From: Cyclobacteriaceae bacterium | GTDB lineage: Bacteria > Bacteroidota > Bacteroidia > Cytophagales > Cyclobacteriaceae | Length of the DNA: 64,000 nucleotides | Assembly (NCBI GenBank): GCA_040079965.1 | Contig: JBEBJH010000001.1 | Coordinates: 3,862-67,861 of the forward strand | Direction of reading: 5' to 3' | Shown: positions 23,540 to 32,562 of the stretch, piece after piece | How positions within the stretch are numbered: the stretch's first letter is position 1 | Layout of the letters: each line of letters starts with the position of its first letter | Notes under the pieces: generated by a model | Seen by the model: only the letters and a program-made list of their open reading frames with translations | The model's database searches: none | Told to the model about the DNA's origin: nothing | Position numbers and translations under genes: made by a program

Positions 23540-24661
23540 TTACTCTTGAGTAGATTTCATTTTCATCAACAAGCTATAAGCGTTTTTGACAACCAGCTTT
23601 TGAGTAATCAAAACGTTTTTAAGTTCTGTAAAGCCATTGTTCGTCATCCCGATTTCAACAGGATACATGGTAAACACCCCCGTTGATTTTTCTATAAAGA
23701 CGTAGTATTTATTTTCCCAGCTTACAATGGCATCCTCAGGCACAGAAATTACTTCACTGTTTCTAAGCTCAATTTCCGCGGTAATGAACATGCCAGGGAG
23801 AAGTGCCCAATCAGCATTTTCCAGATCGCAGTGTATTTCGCTGGTTCGCTCGTCATTCAGACTTTTGTTAATAAGGTGGACACGCGCGGTATAATTTTTT
23901 TGAGGCTGAGCGTTGGAGTAGACGTTTACCTTTTGACCAAGAGCAATCAACGCCATATCTTTTTCGAAAGCAGTGAGGCTAACATGTAACTTGCTTTCAT
24001 CCACCAGCAAAAGCAAAACATCGGTAGGACTGACGTACTTTCCAACATTGACATAGATACCGGCTACGTAACCGTTGATAGGAGCGCGCAGAGTCACCGA
24101 TCCGGATAATGAAGTTTCATCCAACAGATCAGGATTGATATTGATTAGTTTTAATTTCTCATACAGCGCCTTCGTTAAAATTTTCTGACCCATGTAATCG
24201 CTGCTTGCCTGTTGAAAGGTTTTATCACTGGTAGATTTATCAGCATTTAAATCACGCTGTCGCAGGAAATCTTTAGTAAGAAATTCCAATTTGCTCTTAG
24301 CCATCAGGTAGTCTTGTTGTAGTTGGATGTACTGAGGGTCTTCCATGACAATCAGCATGTCGCCTTGTTTTACGCGAGTTCCTGGCAGGAGATTCATTTT
24401 TTTAATGTACCCACCGAACGGATTGCTAACGGATATCTTATTGGCAGGAGGAACTTCAATCACGCCATTTAAGCGAATGGCAGTGCTCATGTCTTTTTGT
24501 TGTGGTTGGCCTATTACAATCTCAGCATTTTTTATTTGCTCTTGGGTTAGCTGAACAATATTATTTTCAGTGCCAGTTGTTGCTGTATCGGTTTGCGCGG
24601 CTTCTTTTTTACAGGAGAACAAAAGCAAGCCCAAGCTGAATACAAATGCAATTCTTTTCAT
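23540..24661 (-). CDS. RND efflux periplasmic adaptor (CzcB/CusB-like), copy 2
   Basis: Lipobox LLFSC. Paralog of 17160-18335 (YIQLQQDYL, LLPGMFI.AEI). Start refined to ATG 24661. Confidence 0.88.
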   Translation of the reverse strand: MKRIAFVFSLGLLLFSCKKEAAQTDTATTGTENNIVQLTQEQIKNAEIVIGQPQQKDMSTAIRLNGVIEVPPANKISVSNPFGGYIKKMNLLPGTRVKQGDMLIVMEDPQYIQLQQDYLMAKSKLEFLTKDFLRQRDLNADKSTSDKTFQQASSDYMGQKILTKALYEKLKLININPDLLDETSLSGSVTLRAPINGYVAGIYVNVGKYVSPTDVLLLLVDESKLHVSLTAFEKDMALIALGQKVNVYSNAQPQKNYTARVHLINKSLNDERTSEIHCDLENADWALLPGMFITAEIELRNSEVISVPEDAIVSWENKYYVFIEKSTGVFTMYPVEIGMTNNGFTELKNVLITQKLVVKNAYSLLMKMKSTQE

Positions 24662-27600
24662 TTGAGAATTTTTTAAACAATTCGATTTGAAAACCATTTC
24701 GTTGTGCTGTTGAATAATGTTGAAATATGCTGCCCGGATTTTGGATGGAGAGGTTATTCGCAAAGGGCTCACCTGCTTTATATGTCGAAATTTTTTCCTG
24801 TGCTTTCGATGATGCTACATGAAGAACTACAAGAGCCAAAACTAAAATAGCAACAGCTGTTTTTGGTAACGCAAATCTTTTTTCCAGCATGGTATAAAGT
24901 ACGGGTAGTATAAAAAGAGTGAGCATGGTGGAGATAATCAATCCGCCAATTACAACAGTTGCCAGCGGCTTTTGCACTTCTGCACCCGCCCCCTGACTAA
25001 TGGCCATTGGGATAAAACCAAGCGCAGGAACAAATGCCGTCATAAGGATGGCGCGCAATTTTGATTTGGTGGCATGAATAACGATGCGTTCTGTATCGGT
25101 CCAGCCTTCACTTTTTAGCAGATTAAATTGAGAAACCAATAAAATTCCATTCAGTACCGCCACACCAAACAATGCAATAAAACCGACACCCGCTGATATA
25201 CTGAAAGGCATATCGCGGATCCAAAGGGAAAATATGCCACCCATGGCAGAAAGCGGAATAGCAGTATAGATGAGCAATCCTTGTTTGATTGATCCAAAAG
25301 CAAAATAGAGCATGAGAAAAATAAGAAGCAGGGCGATTGGAAGAACAATGGTCAATCGCGCCTTGGCTGCATTGAGGTTTTCAAACGCTCCGCCATATTT
25401 AATGGTATAACTTGGAGGAAGCTTTAAACTCTTTGAAACTTTGTCCTGCAATTCAGTTACAATAGATTGAACGTCACGCCCACGAACGTTGAAGCCCACA
25501 ATAATTCTTCTCCGTGTATTTTCACGCTGTATTTGATTAGGGCCAACAATCTCTTCGATGTTGGCCACCTGATATAATGGCACCTGAGTACCGTTGTCAA
25601 TGGGGATCAAAAGATTTTGAATGTCTTTGACATTTCTTCTCGATTCGTTTTCAAGACGCACCACAAGATCGAAGCGTTTTTCGCCTTCATATACAAGCCC
25701 GGCACTTTGTCCGGCAAAGGCGGTATTTACGGTGTTGTTAATGTCACGCACGTTAAGTCCATACATGGCCATTGCTTCGCGGTTGTAGGTGATAACAACT
25801 TGTGGCATACCCGTTACCGTCTCCACATATAGATTAATCGCACCATCAACGGTTGAGATTAGCTCACCAAGCTTTTTGGAATATCGTGCAAGCGTATCCA
25901 GATCTTCACCGAAAATTTTACAAACTACATCCTGCCGCGCACCGGTCATGAGTTCGTTGAAGCGCATTTGAACCGGAAATTGAAACCCGAAACTTACGCC
26001 TGGAATATCTTCCAGTTCTTTGCCCATTTTTTCTGCGAGCTCATCGAACGAGGAGGCCGAAACCCATTCACTTTTATCCTTTAGTATCACCATCATATCG
26101 CTTGCCTCCAGTGGCATGGGGTCTAGGGGAATTTCAGAGCTTCCGATTTTTGTGACCACTTTTTCAACTTCCGGAAAACGGTCCAGTAAAATTTTTGCTG
26201 ACTTCTGCGTGGTATTTATCGTGTTGGTAAGACTGCTTCCTGTAAGCAATCGCGTGTCGATTGCAAAGTCACCTTCTTCCAATTCAGGAATAAATTCACC
26301 ACCCATGTTCAAAAGCACGAAGACTGAAACAGCAAATAAGCTTAACGTAGTAGCAATCGCTGTCTTTGGAAACGTGAGAACTTTATGAAGGAGCGGTTGA
26401 TATTTTCTTTCCACCCACGCCATCATTTTATCAGCCACTGTTTTTGCGTGACTTATTTTTTTGTTAAGAAACAGTGAACTCATCATGGGCACATAGGTAA
26501 CGGAAAGAATGAAGGCGCCTAAAATGGCAAACGCAACCGTAAAAGCCATCGGCTTAAACATTTTACCTTCTATACCTTCAAGAGAAAGAATGGGGATGTA
26601 GACAATGAGGATGATGATCTGACTGAAGACAGCAGACTTGATCATTGAGACCGTTGAATGCTCAACTTCCTGATTCATTTCTTGTTGAGTGAGCACGCCT
26701 ACTTTTGCAAAATGTTGAGAGTGCGTAAACCGATGAAGAATAGCCTCTACGACAATTACGGATCCGTCTACAATCAGCCCAAAATCAATAGCACCAAGGC
26801 TCATCAGGTTGCCGCCAATTCCAAACCGGTTCATTAGTATTATAGCGAAAAGCATGGAGAGCGGTATCACTGAGGAAACAATCAGTCCGGCCCGCAGATT
26901 TCCTAAGAAGAAGACCAACACAAAGACTACAATGAGTGCGCCTTCTATAAGATTTGTTTTAACGGTATTAATGGCATTGTTTACCATCTTGGTCCTGTCG
27001 AGGAAGGCTTCAATCATGACTCCTTCAGGAAGGGATTGTTGTATCTCAGCAATTTTTGCTTTTACATTTTTTATTACTGCCGATGAGTTTTCGCCTTTCA
27101 GCATCATCACAACAGCGCCCGCTACCTCACCCTGATCGTTATAAGTCATGGCACCGTATCGTGTTGCATAGCCAAGACCAACCAAAGCAACATCCCTCAT
27201 GAGCACAGGCATGCCATTGGCTAATTTCCTCACAACAATTTTTTCGATATCCGGAATTCCTTTGGTGAGTCCTTCTGTGCGAATGTAAAGTACTGTTGGC
27301 CCCTTTTCGATGTAGGCACCCCCCGTATTTTCATTATTATTTTCAAGTGCCAGGAAAACATCAGCAATCGTTACCCCATACGCCTTCAATTGTTCTGTTC
27401 GCACCGCGATTTCATATTGCTTGAGTTGACCACCAAAGCTGCTCACATCGGCTACACCGGGAGTGCCCAGCAGTTGCCTTCTTATCGTCCAGTCCTGAAT
27501 TGTGCGCAGCGACATGGCATTATACCGGTGCTCATAACCGGGCTTGGCCCGCACTACATATTGATAGATTTCTCCCAGACCCGTAGTAACAGGTGCCATG

Positions 27601-27986
27601 TCAGGAATGCCAATGCTATTCGGAATGGTTTGTTTTACCTGGGCCAGACGCTCACTGATTTGTTGTCTTGCCCAATAGATGTCGACACCATCTTTAAATA
27701 CGACTGTTACCAGTGATAGACCAAAACGTGAAAAGCTTCTGATATTTTTTAGTCCCGGGATATTGCTGCAAGACTGTTCGATAGGAAATGTAATCAAACG
27801 CTCAACATCCGTTGCACCTAATGCAGGCGAGACCGTAATCACCTGCACCTGGTTGTCAGTTATATCGGGAACGGCATCAATGGGCAACTGGGTAACCTCA
27901 TAGCTGCCATAGCTGATGAGTCCAATAACGAACAGACCGATAATTAACTTTTGTTTTACAGAAAATTCTATGATTTTATTTAACAT
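24609..27986 (-). CDS. CzcA/CusA-family RND pump, copy 2, with the TolC domain truncated
   Basis: Complete RND body (GAIDFGLIVDGSVIVVE, KLRAILMTAFVPALGFIPMA). After KAQEKIS only about 20 OEP-like residues remain, then an out-of-frame tail that overlaps the adaptor start. Start refined to ATG 27986. Confidence 0.85.
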   Translation of the reverse strand: MLNKIIEFSVKQKLIIGLFVIGLISYGSYEVTQLPIDAVPDITDNQVQVITVSPALGATDVERLITFPIEQSCSNIPGLKNIRSFSRFGLSLVTVVFKDGVDIYWARQQISERLAQVKQTIPNSIGIPDMAPVTTGLGEIYQYVVRAKPGYEHRYNAMSLRTIQDWTIRRQLLGTPGVADVSSFGGQLKQYEIAVRTEQLKAYGVTIADVFLALENNNENTGGAYIEKGPTVLYIRTEGLTKGIPDIEKIVVRKLANGMPVLMRDVALVGLGYATRYGAMTYNDQGEVAGAVVMMLKGENSSAVIKNVKAKIAEIQQSLPEGVMIEAFLDRTKMVNNAINTVKTNLIEGALIVVFVLVFFLGNLRAGLIVSSVIPLSMLFAIILMNRFGIGGNLMSLGAIDFGLIVDGSVIVVEAILHRFTHSQHFAKVGVLTQQEMNQEVEHSTVSMIKSAVFSQIIILIVYIPILSLEGIEGKMFKPMAFTVAFAILGAFILSVTYVPMMSSLFLNKKISHAKTVADKMMAWVERKYQPLLHKVLTFPKTAIATTLSLFAVSVFVLLNMGGEFIPELEEGDFAIDTRLLTGSSLTNTINTTQKSAKILLDRFPEVEKVVTKIGSSEIPLDPMPLEASDMMVILKDKSEWVSASSFDELAEKMGKELEDIPGVSFGFQFPVQMRFNELMTGARQDVVCKIFGEDLDTLARYSKKLGELISTVDGAINLYVETVTGMPQVVITYNREAMAMYGLNVRDINNTVNTAFAGQSAGLVYEGEKRFDLVVRLENESRRNVKDIQNLLIPIDNGTQVPLYQVANIEEIVGPNQIQRENTRRRIIVGFNVRGRDVQSIVTELQDKVSKSLKLPPSYTIKYGGAFENLNAAKARLTIVLPIALLLIFLMLYFAFGSIKQGLLIYTAIPLSAMGGIFSLWIRDMPFSISAGVGFIALFGVAVLNGILLVSQFNLLKSEGWTDTERIVIHATKSKLRAILMTAFVPALGFIPMAISQGAGAEVQKPLATVVIGGLIISTMLTLFILPVLYTMLEKRFALPKTAVAILVLALVVLHVASSKAQEKISTYKAGEPFANNLSIQNPGSIFQHYSTAQRNGFQIELFKKFSNEKNCICIQLGLAFVLL
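24662..24803 (-). pseudogene. Remnant of the internally deleted TolC/OEP domain of CzcA copy 2
   Basis: One frame reads QEKISTYKAGEPFANNLSIQN (copy 1: QTPITIQAAIDTALVNNLLVKN). Another frame reads IRAAYFNIIQQHNEMVFKSNCL (copy 1 C-terminus: LRNEYLIAVNNLNESIIQLNYF). Confidence 0.65.
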
Positions 27987-28106
27987 CGCTACTGACTTTA
28001 CAGTTACTGGGATCGCTGTTTTTGGCAACATCCAGGGAAGCAAACAGAAGAGGATCGAAAATGAACAGGCGTGGTTAACGTTCAATAACCTGTTGCATCC
28101 CAAATT

Positions 28107-28505
28107 TTAATTTCGTGGAGGTTGCCAGATAGACTCACTAAACCCAGTGTAGAAATTTGACTGATAGAAATTTGAATAGGATCTGTAAAAATTGATGGAG
28201 GTTATTTCGCAAGCATTGACATTTGAAATGACACTAAGGATATGAGAAAAAGTACAAGTGCTTGATTTAAACGGAAGGTTCTGATGTTTGCCGCGTTCAT
28301 CCTGATCATGCTGATTAGCCTGACGGCCATAGTGTAAGCTTAAGAAATCGACTAAAGAAAAATTGGACACCCTATTAAGGTGTTCGTGATAATGTTCAAT
28401 AAGTATAGGCATCTTCACCACACTATGTAAATCCACTATACTACCCATTAGAGTTAGCGACAATAGCAGAATGCTTGTGGATTTAGTCATATATAAAAAT
28501 ACCAT
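28107..28505 (-). CDS. His-rich small protein ending in WQPPRN; putative metal-responsive leader, copy 2
   Basis: Motifs LIEHYHEH, DFLSLHYG, HDQDERGKHQNLPFK, CTFSH, SIWQPPR. Directly upstream of CzcA copy 2. Confidence 0.75.
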   Translation of the reverse strand: MVFLYMTKSTSILLLSLTLMGSIVDLHSVVKMPILIEHYHEHLNRVSNFSLVDFLSLHYGRQANQHDQDERGKHQNLPFKSSTCTFSHILSVISNVNACEITSINFYRSYSNFYQSNFYTGFSESIWQPPRN

Positions 28506-28558
28506 GCTCTGGTAACTTAAAATATGATTTATATCACCCGGGCAATTGATTAGACAAC

Positions 28559-29611
28559 CTAAAACAAGGAGAGATTCCCGCCTTTGCGGAATTTTGTTAA
28601 GTCATAAGCAGGCATCTGCCTTCCTGAAAAGTACTTCTTCTTAGAGACTCGATATAATTGATGAATAGCATCAGCAATGTTTCCTTCTCCTGACATTCGC
28701 CTGCCGAATTGTGAATCGTTTACATTGCCACCATGAAAAGAGCAGATCTGGTTCCAAACCTTATCAAACCGATCCGGAAAATTCTTGCGCAGCCAGTCCT
28801 CAAAAATTTTGCCAATAGAGCCATTGAGTCGAACAACCGTCATGCCAGCAGCCAGCGCTCCATGATCGGAGGCTGCTTTTAAAACATGAGGTATTTCATG
28901 ATGATTCAGGCCAGGAATAATTGGGGCATTCATCACGCCTACGGGTACACCGGCCTTCGAAAGTTCCTCAATCGTTTTTAATCGTTTCAGCGAACTGGCA
29001 GTGCGCGGTTCAAGAATTCGTCTTAGCGATTCGTCTAATGTGGTTATTGAAATGAATACCTGCACCAGGTTATCAGAGGCCAGGTCTTTCAACAGATCAA
29101 GATCGCGAAGTATTAAGCTATTCTTGGTGATCATTCCTACGGGGTGACGATAGGTGGCAAACACCCTCAACAGATTTCGGGTGATTTCAAATTTTTTCTC
29201 TTGCGGTTGATAGCAATCTGTGTTGCCGCTGAGCATAATAGGTATTGCATTCCAGTTTTTGTTAAGCAGGTGTTTTTCGAGTAGTGCCGGAGCATTTTTC
29301 TTTACAATGATCTTGCTTTCAAAATCTAACCCGGCACTAAAGCCATAGTATTCATGTGTGTTTCGTGCATAGCAATAAATGCATCCATGTTCGCAGCCTT
29401 GATATGGGTTCATGGAATACATCATACTTAAATCGGGGCTGTCTACTTTATTCACAATCTTTTTCGGAGTTTCGAAAAAGATTTGCGTGGTGGGCGATTC
29501 CAGCAAGGGCTCATCAAGACCTTCGATATGATCGGTGACATACTGAGATTTTAGAAACCGGTTTTCGGTTTTTATCTGGGCCCCACGACCTTTGAAATAA
29601 GATTCATCCAT
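28559..29611 (-). CDS. PA0069/Rv2578c-family radical SAM protein (SplB-like, COG1533)
   Basis: SMNPYQGCEHGCIYCYAR (CxxxCxxC), SGNTDCYQP, ITKNSLILRDLD, LEPRT, APIIPGLN. Confidence 0.9.
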   Translation of the reverse strand: MDESYFKGRGAQIKTENRFLKSQYVTDHIEGLDEPLLESPTTQIFFETPKKIVNKVDSPDLSMMYSMNPYQGCEHGCIYCYARNTHEYYGFSAGLDFESKIIVKKNAPALLEKHLLNKNWNAIPIMLSGNTDCYQPQEKKFEITRNLLRVFATYRHPVGMITKNSLILRDLDLLKDLASDNLVQVFISITTLDESLRRILEPRTASSLKRLKTIEELSKAGVPVGVMNAPIIPGLNHHEIPHVLKAASDHGALAAGMTVVRLNGSIGKIFEDWLRKNFPDRFDKVWNQICSFHGGNVNDSQFGRRMSGEGNIADAIHQLYRVSKKKYFSGRQMPAYDLTKFRKGGNLSLF

Positions 29612-29621
29612 AAAACAATAA

Positions 29622-29638
29622 TACTAATTAATTTAGTA
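29622..29638. promoter_or_regulatory. Palindromic operator TACTAA-N5-TTAGTA (candidate Bacteroidota SOS box)
   Basis: Perfect 6-bp inverted repeat with a 5-nt spacer, filling the 32-nt gap between divergent start codons. Confidence 0.65.
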
Positions 29639-29643
29639 AAACA

Positions 29644-30525
29644 TTGATCAGATACCAAAAAACAACTATTTCTGAGTTGAAAAGCGAAATAATTGAGCAA
29701 TCAGGGGTCAGGCTTTTGATAAAAAGAGAGTATCAAAACCATCCCATGGTGTCGGGCAATAAATGGTGGAAGCTCAAATACAATCTGGAGGAGGCATTAA
29801 AAGCCGGACAAACTACTTTGCTCACGTTTGGGGGAACCTACTCGAATCACATTTACGCAACCGCTGCAGCTGCGCATGAGTTGGGTTTGAAATCTATTGG
29901 AATTATTCGGGGTGAAGGAACGCTTCCATTAAACTCCACCCTTTCATTCGCGAAAGCGAGAGGTATGCTACTTCATTACATTTCGCGTGAAGCATACAGA
30001 AACAAGACAGAAGCGTCATTCATGGAACAATTCCATAATCAGTTTGGGGATTTTTATCTGATCCCGGAAGGAGGAACGAATGAACTTGCTGTGAAGGGTT
30101 GTGCAGAGTTTGCAAAGCAACTAAGCGCTGAGGTTGCTTTTGATTATATCTGTTTACCGGTGGGAACGGGCGGAACGATAGCAGGAATAATTGAAAGTCT
30201 GGATGAGTCAAAGAAGATCATTGGGTTTCCTGTATTAAAGGGAGCAACATTTCTGGAAGATGAAATCAGAAAATATACCTCAAAAACAAACTGGCAATTA
30301 GTTTTCGATTATCACTTTGGTGGCTATGCAAAAGTGACTAAAGAGCTGAAGGAATTTATGGATCAATTTGAAAAGGAATTCAGCGTACCATTAGATCCGG
30401 TCTATACAGCGAAGATGATGTTTGGAATCATTGATTTGATTAAGAAGAAATTCTTTGAAGCAGGCTCAACGATTTTAGCAATTCATACAGGAGGTCTTCA
30501 GGGAAGTGCAGGCTTTAATTCCTGA
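29644..30525 (+). CDS. PLP-dependent ACC deaminase/D-cysteine desulfhydrase-family protein
   Basis: SGNKWWKLKY (PLP lysine), TFGGTYSNH, IPEGG, VGTGGT, LDPVYTAK, IHTGGLQG. Confidence 0.88.
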   Translation: MIRYQKTTISELKSEIIEQSGVRLLIKREYQNHPMVSGNKWWKLKYNLEEALKAGQTTLLTFGGTYSNHIYATAAAAHELGLKSIGIIRGEGTLPLNSTLSFAKARGMLLHYISREAYRNKTEASFMEQFHNQFGDFYLIPEGGTNELAVKGCAEFAKQLSAEVAFDYICLPVGTGGTIAGIIESLDESKKIIGFPVLKGATFLEDEIRKYTSKTNWQLVFDYHFGGYAKVTKELKEFMDQFEKEFSVPLDPVYTAKMMFGIIDLIKKKFFEAGSTILAIHTGGLQGSAGFNS

Positions 30526-31123
30526 TCACGCCACGCAGCCATGTAAAGATCCTTAATCCTCCACGCTCCTCAGGCAAAGCACCACTTTCGGCAGCAGCCT
30601 TGACTTTTTCTATCGTGTAGAACGCGGTTGGGATTAGTTCTTTCAATTTGTTGAGCAAATCATCTAAACGTTCACGTTCAAGAACCGTAAACACCAACGT
30701 TTCATGGCCATCTGGGCCTTCGGCATTTACTCTAGTGAAACGAAAGTGTTGTGTGTTGAGGTACTGGATGAGTTGGGTAACATCTTTGCGCGTAATAATC
30801 CGCACAATCACTTTTCCGTAAGCAATTCTTTCTTCGATGATCATGCCCACAAAAATTCCGCAAGCAAATCCGGCAGGATAGGCCACATAGCAAAGCCAGT
30901 TATCCAGGTGTTTGAAGATTTCACGAATCACCAACAGCCAGATGAATGCTTCGAAGAATCCGAGTAGTGTTGCAGTCAATCTTCTTCCACCCAACATATA
31001 GATAATGCGAATCGTGTTTATAGAAACATCGCAGATTCGCGCAAGAAAAATAAGCAATGGTAAAATCAGGAAACTGAAAAGATCTGGTGAGAATCCAAGC
31101 GTATCAGTGAAGAATGATTCCAT
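30515..31123 (-). CDS. DUF2179/UPF0316-type membrane protein
   Basis: LIFLARICDVSINTIRI, GFFEAFIWL, YPAGFACG, C-terminal ACT-like domain (AFYTIEKVK). Confidence 0.78.
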   Translation of the reverse strand: MESFFTDTLGFSPDLFSFLILPLLIFLARICDVSINTIRIIYMLGGRRLTATLLGFFEAFIWLLVIREIFKHLDNWLCYVAYPAGFACGIFVGMIIEERIAYGKVIVRIITRKDVTQLIQYLNTQHFRFTRVNAEGPDGHETLVFTVLERERLDDLLNKLKELIPTAFYTIEKVKAAAESGALPEERGGLRIFTWLRGVIRN

Positions 31124-31176: not shown

Positions 31177-32562
31177 TCACTTAAATAAATCTTTAAATAC
31201 TTCTTCCAGTTTGCCAAAGGTCTTCACCGTGATTTTTGCCTTCTTCAGATCCAACGACTTCTGACTGTATTTTGAAATATAGATTTCCTGGAACCCCAGC
31301 TTCTCTGCTTCAGAAATCCTCTGATCAATTCGGTTTACCGCACGAAGCTCACCACCCAACCCTATTTCCGCGGCAAAACATACTTTATCGCTTACGGGAA
31401 TTTCTTCCATCGATGATATGATCGAAATGCATAAAGCAAGATCAATGGCTGGATCCTCAACGTAAATACCCCCGGCCATGTTTACAAACACATCTTGTGT
31501 GCCCATTCGAAAGCCACAGCGTTTTTCAAGTACGGCCAATAGCATATTTAACCGCTTCTGATCAAAACCAGTGGGGGTGCGTTGCGGTGTGCCGTACGAG
31601 GCCGGACTCACCAACGACTGAATTTCAATCAACAAAGGGCGATTGCCTTCGATGGTCGCTCCGATAGTAGCACCACTGAGCAGTCCGTCTTTTTGAGAAA
31701 TTAAAATTTCAGATGGATTAGAAACTTCACGCAAGCCGTTGCCCAACATTTCATAAATGCCAATTTCAGAGGTAGAGCCGAAACGATTTTTAGTGGTGCG
31801 CAGAATGCGATAGGCCAAATGACGATCGCCTTCAAATTGCAACACCGTATCCACCATGTGTTCCAATACTTTGGGTCCTGCCAGCATACCATCTTTGGTG
31901 ATGTGGCCAACCAGAAATACAGGCGTGTTGGTTTCTTTGGCAAACTTCATCAGCTCACCGGCACATTGACGCACCTGGCCAATGCTGCCCGCTGAGGAGT
32001 CGAGCATGTGTGAGTGGAGTGTTTGGATTGAGTCAATGATTACCAGATTAGGCTGCACGGTTTCAATCGCCTGAAAAATATTTTTAGTGCCGGTCTCTGC
32101 CAGCATATAAAAATTCTCATTACTGCCTTGAGGCTTTGTTGAAAGTCGTTCGGCTCGCATTTTTATTTGCTGCTCGCTTTCCTCACCTGACACGTAAAGT
32201 ATTTTAGCTTTCTGAAGCGAAAGTCCGAGTTGAAGCATCAGTGTCGATTTGCCGATGCCGGGTTCGCCACCAATCAGAATCAATGAGCCAGGCACAATAC
32301 CGCCACCCAAAACCCTATTTAACTCTTCGTCAGGTGTAGCGATCCGGATTTCTCCGGTTGATTCAATTTCATTGAGCGTCTTAGGTTTGCTTACTCTGCT
32401 TTTGGTAGAATCTTGTCGCCAGTCATTTCGATCGGTTTCATTTTTTGAAACAACTTCTTCTACAAAGCTATTCCACGACCCGCATGATGGGCACTTCCCA
32501 ATCCACTTGGGCGACTCATAACCACAGCTTTGACAGAAGAAAAGAGTTTTGGATTTGGCCAC
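31177..32562 (-). CDS. radA: DNA repair protein RadA (Sms)
   Basis: Zn finger CQSC...CPSC, Walker A GEPGIGKST, KNRFG motif, Lon-like C-terminus (EIGLGGELR). Confidence 0.97.
   Translation of the reverse strand: MAKSKTLFFCQSCGYESPKWIGKCPSCGSWNSFVEEVVSKNETDRNDWRQDSTKSRVSKPKTLNEIESTGEIRIATPDEELNRVLGGGIVPGSLILIGGEPGIGKSTLMLQLGLSLQKAKILYVSGEESEQQIKMRAERLSTKPQGSNENFYMLAETGTKNIFQAIETVQPNLVIIDSIQTLHSHMLDSSAGSIGQVRQCAGELMKFAKETNTPVFLVGHITKDGMLAGPKVLEHMVDTVLQFEGDRHLAYRILRTTKNRFGSTSEIGIYEMLGNGLREVSNPSEILISQKDGLLSGATIGATIEGNRPLLIEIQSLVSPASYGTPQRTPTGFDQKRLNMLLAVLEKRCGFRMGTQDVFVNMAGGIYVEDPAIDLALCISIISSMEEIPVSDKVCFAAEIGLGGELRAVNRIDQRISEAEKLGFQEIYISKYSQKSLDLKKAKITVKTFGKLEEVFKDLFK

Follow-up and report, generated by a model that had tools for sequence, protein, structure and literature searches.

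A predicted SOS operator of the CTAA-N5-TTAG type at the promoter of a PA0069-family radical SAM gene in a Cytophagales genome

In the DNA of a bacterium of the Cytophagales, a perfect inverted repeat lies in the short gap between two divergent genes, one encoding a radical SAM protein and the other a PLP-dependent enzyme; hence, the question arises whether this palindrome is an operator of the DNA-damage response, and which of the two genes it would control. The stretch analysed, referred to below as the window, comprises 64,000 nt (C28:3862-67861) and belongs to a MAG of the Ohtaekwangia/Chryseolinea group, which is 99.8% complete and consists of 427 contigs. The palindrome and the two genes occupy the following positions in the window.

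29622-29627, 29628-29632 and 29633-29638: left arm TACTAA, spacer TTAAT and right arm TTAGTA of the operator
29624-29636: core CTAA-TTAAT-TTAG, a CTAA/TTAG dyad with a spacer of exactly 5 nt
28559-29611, minus strand: PA0069-family radical SAM gene ("SplB-like", COG1533), 350 aa, the gene under the operator
29644-30525, plus strand: gene for a PLP-dependent enzyme of the ACC deaminase/D-cysteine desulfhydrase family, 293 aa, with a TTG start

Read from the sequence, the extended palindrome TACTAA-TTAAT-TTAGTA spans 29622-29638 and is separated by 10 nt (29612-29621) from the ATG of the radical SAM gene (29611-29609, minus strand), which places the core 12 nt from this ATG. The divergent gap between the two genes covers 29612-29643 and measures 32 nt, because the PLP start was set at the TTG at 29644, where the N-terminus has the same length as in ATG-started relatives. 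An earlier note on this DNA had described a TACTAA-N5-TTAGTA palindrome 10 nt before the radical SAM ATG in a 32-nt divergent gap, and the coordinates confirm this description. The same note had cited a link between the CTAA-N5-TTAG motif, LexA-like S24 repressors of Bacteroidota and SplB-like genes; this link is correct, since the relevant paper (PMC8565304) gives both the motif and splB (COG1533) as a regulon member. Two groups of CI-like S24 repressors, termed "non-canonical LexA", are described for the Bacteroidetes, and CTAA-N5-TTAG is the motif of one of them (Sanchez-Osuna et al., NAR 2021; PMC8565304).

Nothing else in the window matches the 6+6 pattern of the palindrome. For the 4+4 core CTAA-N5-TTAG, two occurrences compare with an expectation of 1.15, and the second of them falls inside a 1126-aa ORF. 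When up to one mismatch is allowed, the 6+6 form is found once, against 0.12 expected, and it also appeared in 11 of 100 shuffles. A scan of 28050-30700 for sigma-70 promoters and terminators performed no better than on shuffled sequence, a type of scan that is ill-suited to Bacteroidota. The window alone is weak evidence; the significance of the palindrome comes from the comparison across species and from the genomic context.

For the comparison across species, 78 species-level orthologous promoters of the radical SAM gene (splB) from public genomes were sampled, the closest of which derive from Cytophagales MAGs labelled Cyclobacteriaceae, Ohtaekwangia, Chryseolinea and Chryseosolibacter. 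Of the 78 promoters, 73 have a perfect core, three a core with one mismatch and two no core at all, and part of this conservation reflects shared ancestry, because the loci are related. In 55 of 76 orthologous loci, the core is located 11-12 nt from the start codon, and among the genomes of the genus and the order a box is present upstream of the orthologue in 24 out of 25 (alignment A2). Most of the 4-5 kb orthologous loci contain this core as their sole CTAA-N5-TTAG. A second box at a distance of 21-22 bp is frequent in more distant relatives, and in some relatives it is situated on the PLP side. When the 54 relatives with the 11-12 nt geometry are anchored on the box, the bases adjoining the core are nearly fixed, with T (53/54) followed by A or G on one side, and T (52/54) and A (54/54) on the other. 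The spacer is A/T-rich yet variable, and the upstream flank is almost uninformative.

In a phylum-wide sample of PA0069 genes, no box was found at splB of L174, a member of the same family but of another genus, or at splB of several other Bacteroidia. Many lineages in this sample possess neither of the two Bacteroidetes boxes; they belong mostly to other classes, and one genome is from the same family. As far as the predicted sites indicate, regulation of splB by the CTAA box is lineage-specific, not universal.

For the genomic context, a 17-nt PWM was built solely from the splB sites of the relatives and then run over the genome. Ten matches reach at least 16 bits, and all of them are intergenic, although only about 8% of the genome is non-coding by a crude ORF call. 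Seven matches reach at least 20 bits, compared with 0-2 in block-shuffled genomes. The matches are distributed as follows.

C28, splB (the operator of the window): 25.6 bits, sharing the top score in the genome
C251: Y-family polymerase/LigT-like/DnaE2-like operon, with the Y-family gene first (IMS domains)
C162: recA, two sites
C99: operon ending in an SRAP peptidase (PF02586)
C344: operon of the S24 repressor
C152 and C89: small genes with no family match; one further site in C17

The bare core behaves differently from the extended motif. With N5, it is the commonest spacer class genome-wide (67 matches against 15-54 for other spacers), which is weak evidence, and its intergenic count of 16 genome-wide is not above that of the other spacers (10-19). 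When the spacer is restricted to A/T, N5 has 10 intergenic matches, compared with 0-5 for other spacer lengths. Enrichment of the bare core was dropped as a line of evidence, because it occurs at chance level in the window and its intergenic count equals that of other spacers; hence, the extended motif captured by the PWM, the identity of the flanking genes and the conservation across species were relied on instead.

Several of the boxed operons contain genes that deserve description in their own right. Three loci (C152:963-1760, C99:10816-11217 and C89:2888-3247) encode proteins of 110-130 aa without a family match, directly behind boxes of 20.6-25.6 bits. In C152, two boxes accompany two tandem paralogues beside an IS3-type transposase, and in C99 the small gene heads the operon that ends in the SRAP peptidase; the small proteins of C99 and C89 look related by eye. 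These small proteins of C152, C99 and C89 are candidate new SOS genes. The SOS-boxed operon C251:13497-18432 encodes a Y-family polymerase, a 2H-phosphoesterase/LigT-like protein and a DnaE2-like polymerase, and the LigT-like gene occupies the slot expected for an imuA/imuB-type partner.

A box of this type calls for a repressor to bind it. Canonical LexA was not found, as PF01726 (LexA_DNA_bind) has no match in the 99.8% complete genome. A profile search returned exactly one Peptidase_S24 gene in the genome, C344:1001-1780, whose product combines HTH_3 (PF01381; residues 8-62, 47.9 bits) with Peptidase_S24 (residues 112-216, 33.4 bits). Over the S24 part, identity reaches 55% (191 bits) with the CTAA-N5-TTAG regulator of Pontibacter actiniarum, which was validated by EMSA, and 54% with the regulator of Chryseolinea soli, but just 38% (88 bits) with a GGA-group regulator of Salegentibacter. 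Furthermore, its KAAAGY, GDSM and VYKRV motifs align with KASAGY, GDSM and VFKRI of WP_025606010, which correspond to the Ala-Gly site and the Ser-Lys dyad. Judged by these alignments, C344:1001-1780 is a non-canonical CI-like LexA of the CTAA group, for which cleavage is predicted. According to PMC8565304, the Pontibacter actiniarum regulator binds CTAA-N5-TTAG in EMSA, and substitutions in the dyad or changes to the spacer abolish the binding.

Upstream of the repressor operon, two boxes are located at C344:666 and C344:717. At least two boxes, usually about 52 bp apart, are present in 23 repressor loci of the genus (L137-L159), and the box positions are maintained throughout the genus. An 88-aa ORF (C344:733-996) with no Pfam match separates the two SOS boxes from the HTH_3/S24 repressor gene; it is kept at the protein level in the three genus relatives examined (L139 1238-1495, L151 1178-1510 and L156 1160-1441), with the consensus M.DFKLKL.SKKL.SGRFQVNFST..YYGYLL.EP.T....KI.RH...ERY..RNL.SL..R..SGRILIFKR. 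The repressor operon probably begins with this ORF.

At splB, the operator stands in a defined position relative to a putative promoter element and to the start codon.

29616-29623, minus strand: sigma-A -7-like box TATTATTG (TA-N3-TTG), sharing 2 bp with the end of the operator

The sigma-A -7 box of Bacteroidota, TAnnTTTG, spans -12 to -5 (PMC9723704). Among the 54 relatives with the 11-12 nt geometry, TA-N3-TTG follows the core directly in 42, and the exact TAnnTTTG is present in none; in the window, TATTATTG departs from TAnnTTTG at the fifth position. The G of the -7-like box is located 4 nt before the radical SAM ATG; therefore, the transcription start is predicted at or next to the A of this ATG (29611), and with this putative start site the radical SAM mRNA would be leaderless. 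Leaderless transcripts make up about 4-5% of mRNAs in the Bacteroidota studied. The geometry recurs at the Y-family polymerase gene (C251:18400-18432), where TTAGTATTATTG is followed by 5 nt and then GTG, and leaderless transcripts are predicted for both splB and the Y-family polymerase gene. The PA0069 genes of L195 and L196, which represent other Bacteroidia with either motif type, have the same geometry as the window, and in L196 two GGA boxes stand just before a TATTTTTG box and the ATG in a leaderless-type arrangement. The order operator, TA-N3-TTG, 3-5 nt and start codon is observed at SOS genes here and in other Bacteroidia, with the CTAA or with the GGA motif.

These elements can be assembled into a mechanism. 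In undamaged cells, a dimer of the only S24 repressor of the genome would bind CTAA-N5-TTAG. The operator would cover about -27 to -11 of the radical SAM promoter, directly upstream of the -7-like box with an overlap of 2 bp; the bound repressor would shut out RNA polymerase, because the operator covers this region and abuts the -7-like box. Once DNA is damaged, RecA filaments would cause the repressor to cleave itself at the Ala-Gly bond, and the freed operator would allow the radical SAM gene to be transcribed, probably as a leaderless mRNA. Simultaneously, recA, the Y-family polymerase/DnaE2 operon, the SRAP peptidase operon and the repressor's own operon would be induced.

Two other readings of the palindrome have to be weighed against this mechanism. 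The palindrome might be bound by another regulator, or it might be a structural promoter element, with no role in the response to DNA damage; in favor of this, the site is rich in A and T, promoter elements share part of it, its TTAG arm is similar to TTTG in the sigma-A -7 box, and the genome shows no enrichment of the bare core. However, the extended motif is also situated at recA, the Y-family polymerase/DnaE2 operon, the SRAP operon and the S24 repressor gene, the repressor of this genome is a member of the group for which EMSA demonstrated binding to precisely this dyad with this spacer, and a generic promoter element would not be confined to about ten sites per genome; a role apart from DNA damage is accordingly rated very improbable. 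That the palindrome is a chance match in A/T-rich intergenic DNA, with no function, would agree with the near-chance count of the core in the window and with the recurrence of the 6+6 form, with up to one mismatch, in the shuffles. The comparative data contradict such a match: 73 of the 78 orthologous promoters keep a perfect core, placed at a constant distance from the start codon, despite divergence of the spacer and the flanks. The probability of a chance match is close to negligible.

The palindrome is very probably a real site, as predicted by comparison, for the binding of the Bacteroidota DNA-damage repressor at the radical SAM promoter. The whole explanation, an operator of the S24-repressor SOS system that controls the radical SAM gene, with predicted binding, cleavage, induction and transcription start, is held with high confidence. 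The earlier note had proposed this SOS-box reading for the radical SAM gene, and the repressor, the co-sited repair genes and the conserved footprint support it. The searches that it had suggested were run, and the genome proved to contain a single HTH_3 and S24 repressor of the CTAA group, with two boxes at its own gene, and the motif upstream of recA, the Y-family polymerase/DnaE2 operon and the SRAP peptidase operon.

The product of the controlled gene scores 484.7 bits against NF033668 (PA0069 family; cut-off 360) and also matches PF04055, and its translation contains the CX3CX2C cluster motif as GCEHGCIYC. The identity of a true spore photoproduct lyase was rejected, as TIGR04070 gives 18.4 bits against a cut-off of 400; hence, "SplB-like" is a label for this protein, not a statement of family membership. 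At its C-terminus, the protein ends in GGNLSLF.

28562-28576, minus strand: NLSLF, encoded by the final five codons of the radical SAM gene and a variant of the beta-clamp-binding pentapeptide QL[SD]LF

The consensus for beta-clamp binding is QL[SD]LF. A C-terminal tail of the xLSLF type is present in nearly all of 80 close orthologues (loci L027-L106), and in most PA0069 proteins sampled across the Bacteroidota (L167-L196), QLxLF or QMxLF is located at the C-terminus or 1-2 residues from it. The NLSLF tail looks like a pentapeptide for binding the beta sliding clamp; if it does bind the clamp, the enzyme would be tethered to it at sites of replication or repair.

Two further genes lie close to the radical SAM gene. 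A 132-aa ORF (28107-28505, minus strand), with a His-rich EHYHEH stretch and no family match, separates the radical SAM gene from a CzcA-like efflux pump gene (24609-28103); its position makes it a probable part of the efflux unit rather than of the SOS unit. In addition, a RadA/Sms-like repair gene (31177-32562, minus strand), with zinc ribbon, KaiC/RecA-like ATPase and Lon-C domains, is situated 1.5 kb from the operator; no CTAA-N5-TTAG box was found near it.

The remaining part of the question concerns the PLP gene on the other side of the operator. The protein matches PF00291 with 79.9 bits and reaches 152 bits against TIGR01275, below the cut-off of 289. If the operator were shared, one dimer would silence both divergent genes, and the PLP enzyme would be damage-inducible and work with the radical SAM enzyme; such an extension of the SOS operator explanation is possible, but it is regarded as unlikely. 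A separate PLP promoter would not fit into the 32-nt gap, a mere 5 nt lie between the PLP start codon and the extended operator, 67 of 78 relatives have the PLP gene divergently next to splB, and the second box found 21-22 bp away lies on the PLP side in some of them. Nevertheless, the distance from the box to the predicted PLP start varies from 2 to 112 nt in the relatives, while that to splB is fixed, and the operator showed no convincing -7 box facing the PLP gene. Ten PLP orthologues without direct adjacency to splB were checked over about 200 nt, and none of them carries a box, even with one mismatch allowed, although in two of the ten (G023 and G021) the separation is not clean, as the PLP gene follows an inserted gene on its own strand that is divergent from the splB box. 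Furthermore, Table S5 of PMC8565304 contains no PLP, deaminase or desulfhydrase gene.

The PLP gene was rejected as an independent member of the regulon, because the ten non-adjacent orthologues are without a box and the box distance varies. The comparison across relatives argues against selection for PLP co-repression, which is geometrically plausible in this genome. The earlier note's suggestion that a bound repressor would also cover the PLP start holds for the geometry of the compact gap, and is weakened by the drift of the box-to-PLP distance and by the boxless orthologues elsewhere. A more elaborate version takes the gap for a compact bidirectional control region, where one dimer silences two near-leaderless genes and the PLP gene is a lineage-specific SOS gene beside a clamp-tethered (NLSLF) radical SAM enzyme; this version is improbable. 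If it were true, a PLP-dependent small-molecule reaction would be linked to the chemistry of the PA0069 family.

The SOS operator reading provides a well-supported annotation for a Cytophagales lineage from soil or water that has not been cultured, covering its SOS repressor, the sequence of the operator and about eight operons as targets, with a PA0069-family enzyme among the predicted damage-induced genes. Possibly more useful are three by-products, namely the predicted leaderless geometry of splB in Bacteroidia, the family-wide clamp-binding-like C-terminus of the PA0069 proteins and the conserved small ORF of the repressor operon.

Compared with the known systems, the closest counterpart is the CTAA-N5-TTAG regulon of the Bacteroidetes (PMC8565304). 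The dyad, the spacer length, the HTH_3 and S24 type of repressor and the autoregulation are the same here, and so are the core targets recA, Y-family polymerase/DnaE2, splB/PA0069 and SRAP. In that paper, splB (COG1533) is named a core regulon gene, and "PA0069 family radical SAM protein" appears 42 times in Table S5, including an entry for Chryseolinea soli with two CTAA boxes. The uncultured Cytophagales MAG of the window was not among the genomes of that study; Chryseolinea soli represents a related genus. In contrast to the two boxes listed for it, the radical SAM gene here has only one box, whose extended arms (T[A/G]CTAA..TTAGTA) are fully conserved and which stands at a fixed 11-12 nt before the start codon, next to a -7-like box; this geometry, with the leaderless transcript that it predicts, was not found in the parts of PMC8565304 consulted. 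Because a 2021 paper had already reported the regulator, its motif and their connection with PA0069, the operator described here is a sound annotation of a published type, not a discovery.

The second LexA-like group of the Bacteroidetes controls a GGA-N5-TCC regulon, which shares the architecture of a dyad separated by 5 nt and also includes PA0069 genes, but its half-sites and its repressor group differ, as reflected in the 38% identity to the repressor here. Bacillus SplB (TIGR04070) has the radical SAM superfamily and the "SplB-like" name in common with the protein of the window, but it is a spore photoproduct lyase, which the window's protein is not (18.4 against 400 bits). In Proteobacteria, Verrucomicrobia and Balneolaeota, LexA-regulated genes named PA0069, Rv2578c or "splB" (cited in PMC8565304) encode the same enzyme family, with the operator directly on the promoter. 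Those phyla utilize a canonical winged-helix LexA with different boxes, whereas the genome here would utilize a CI-like repressor and the CTAA-N5-TTAG motif.
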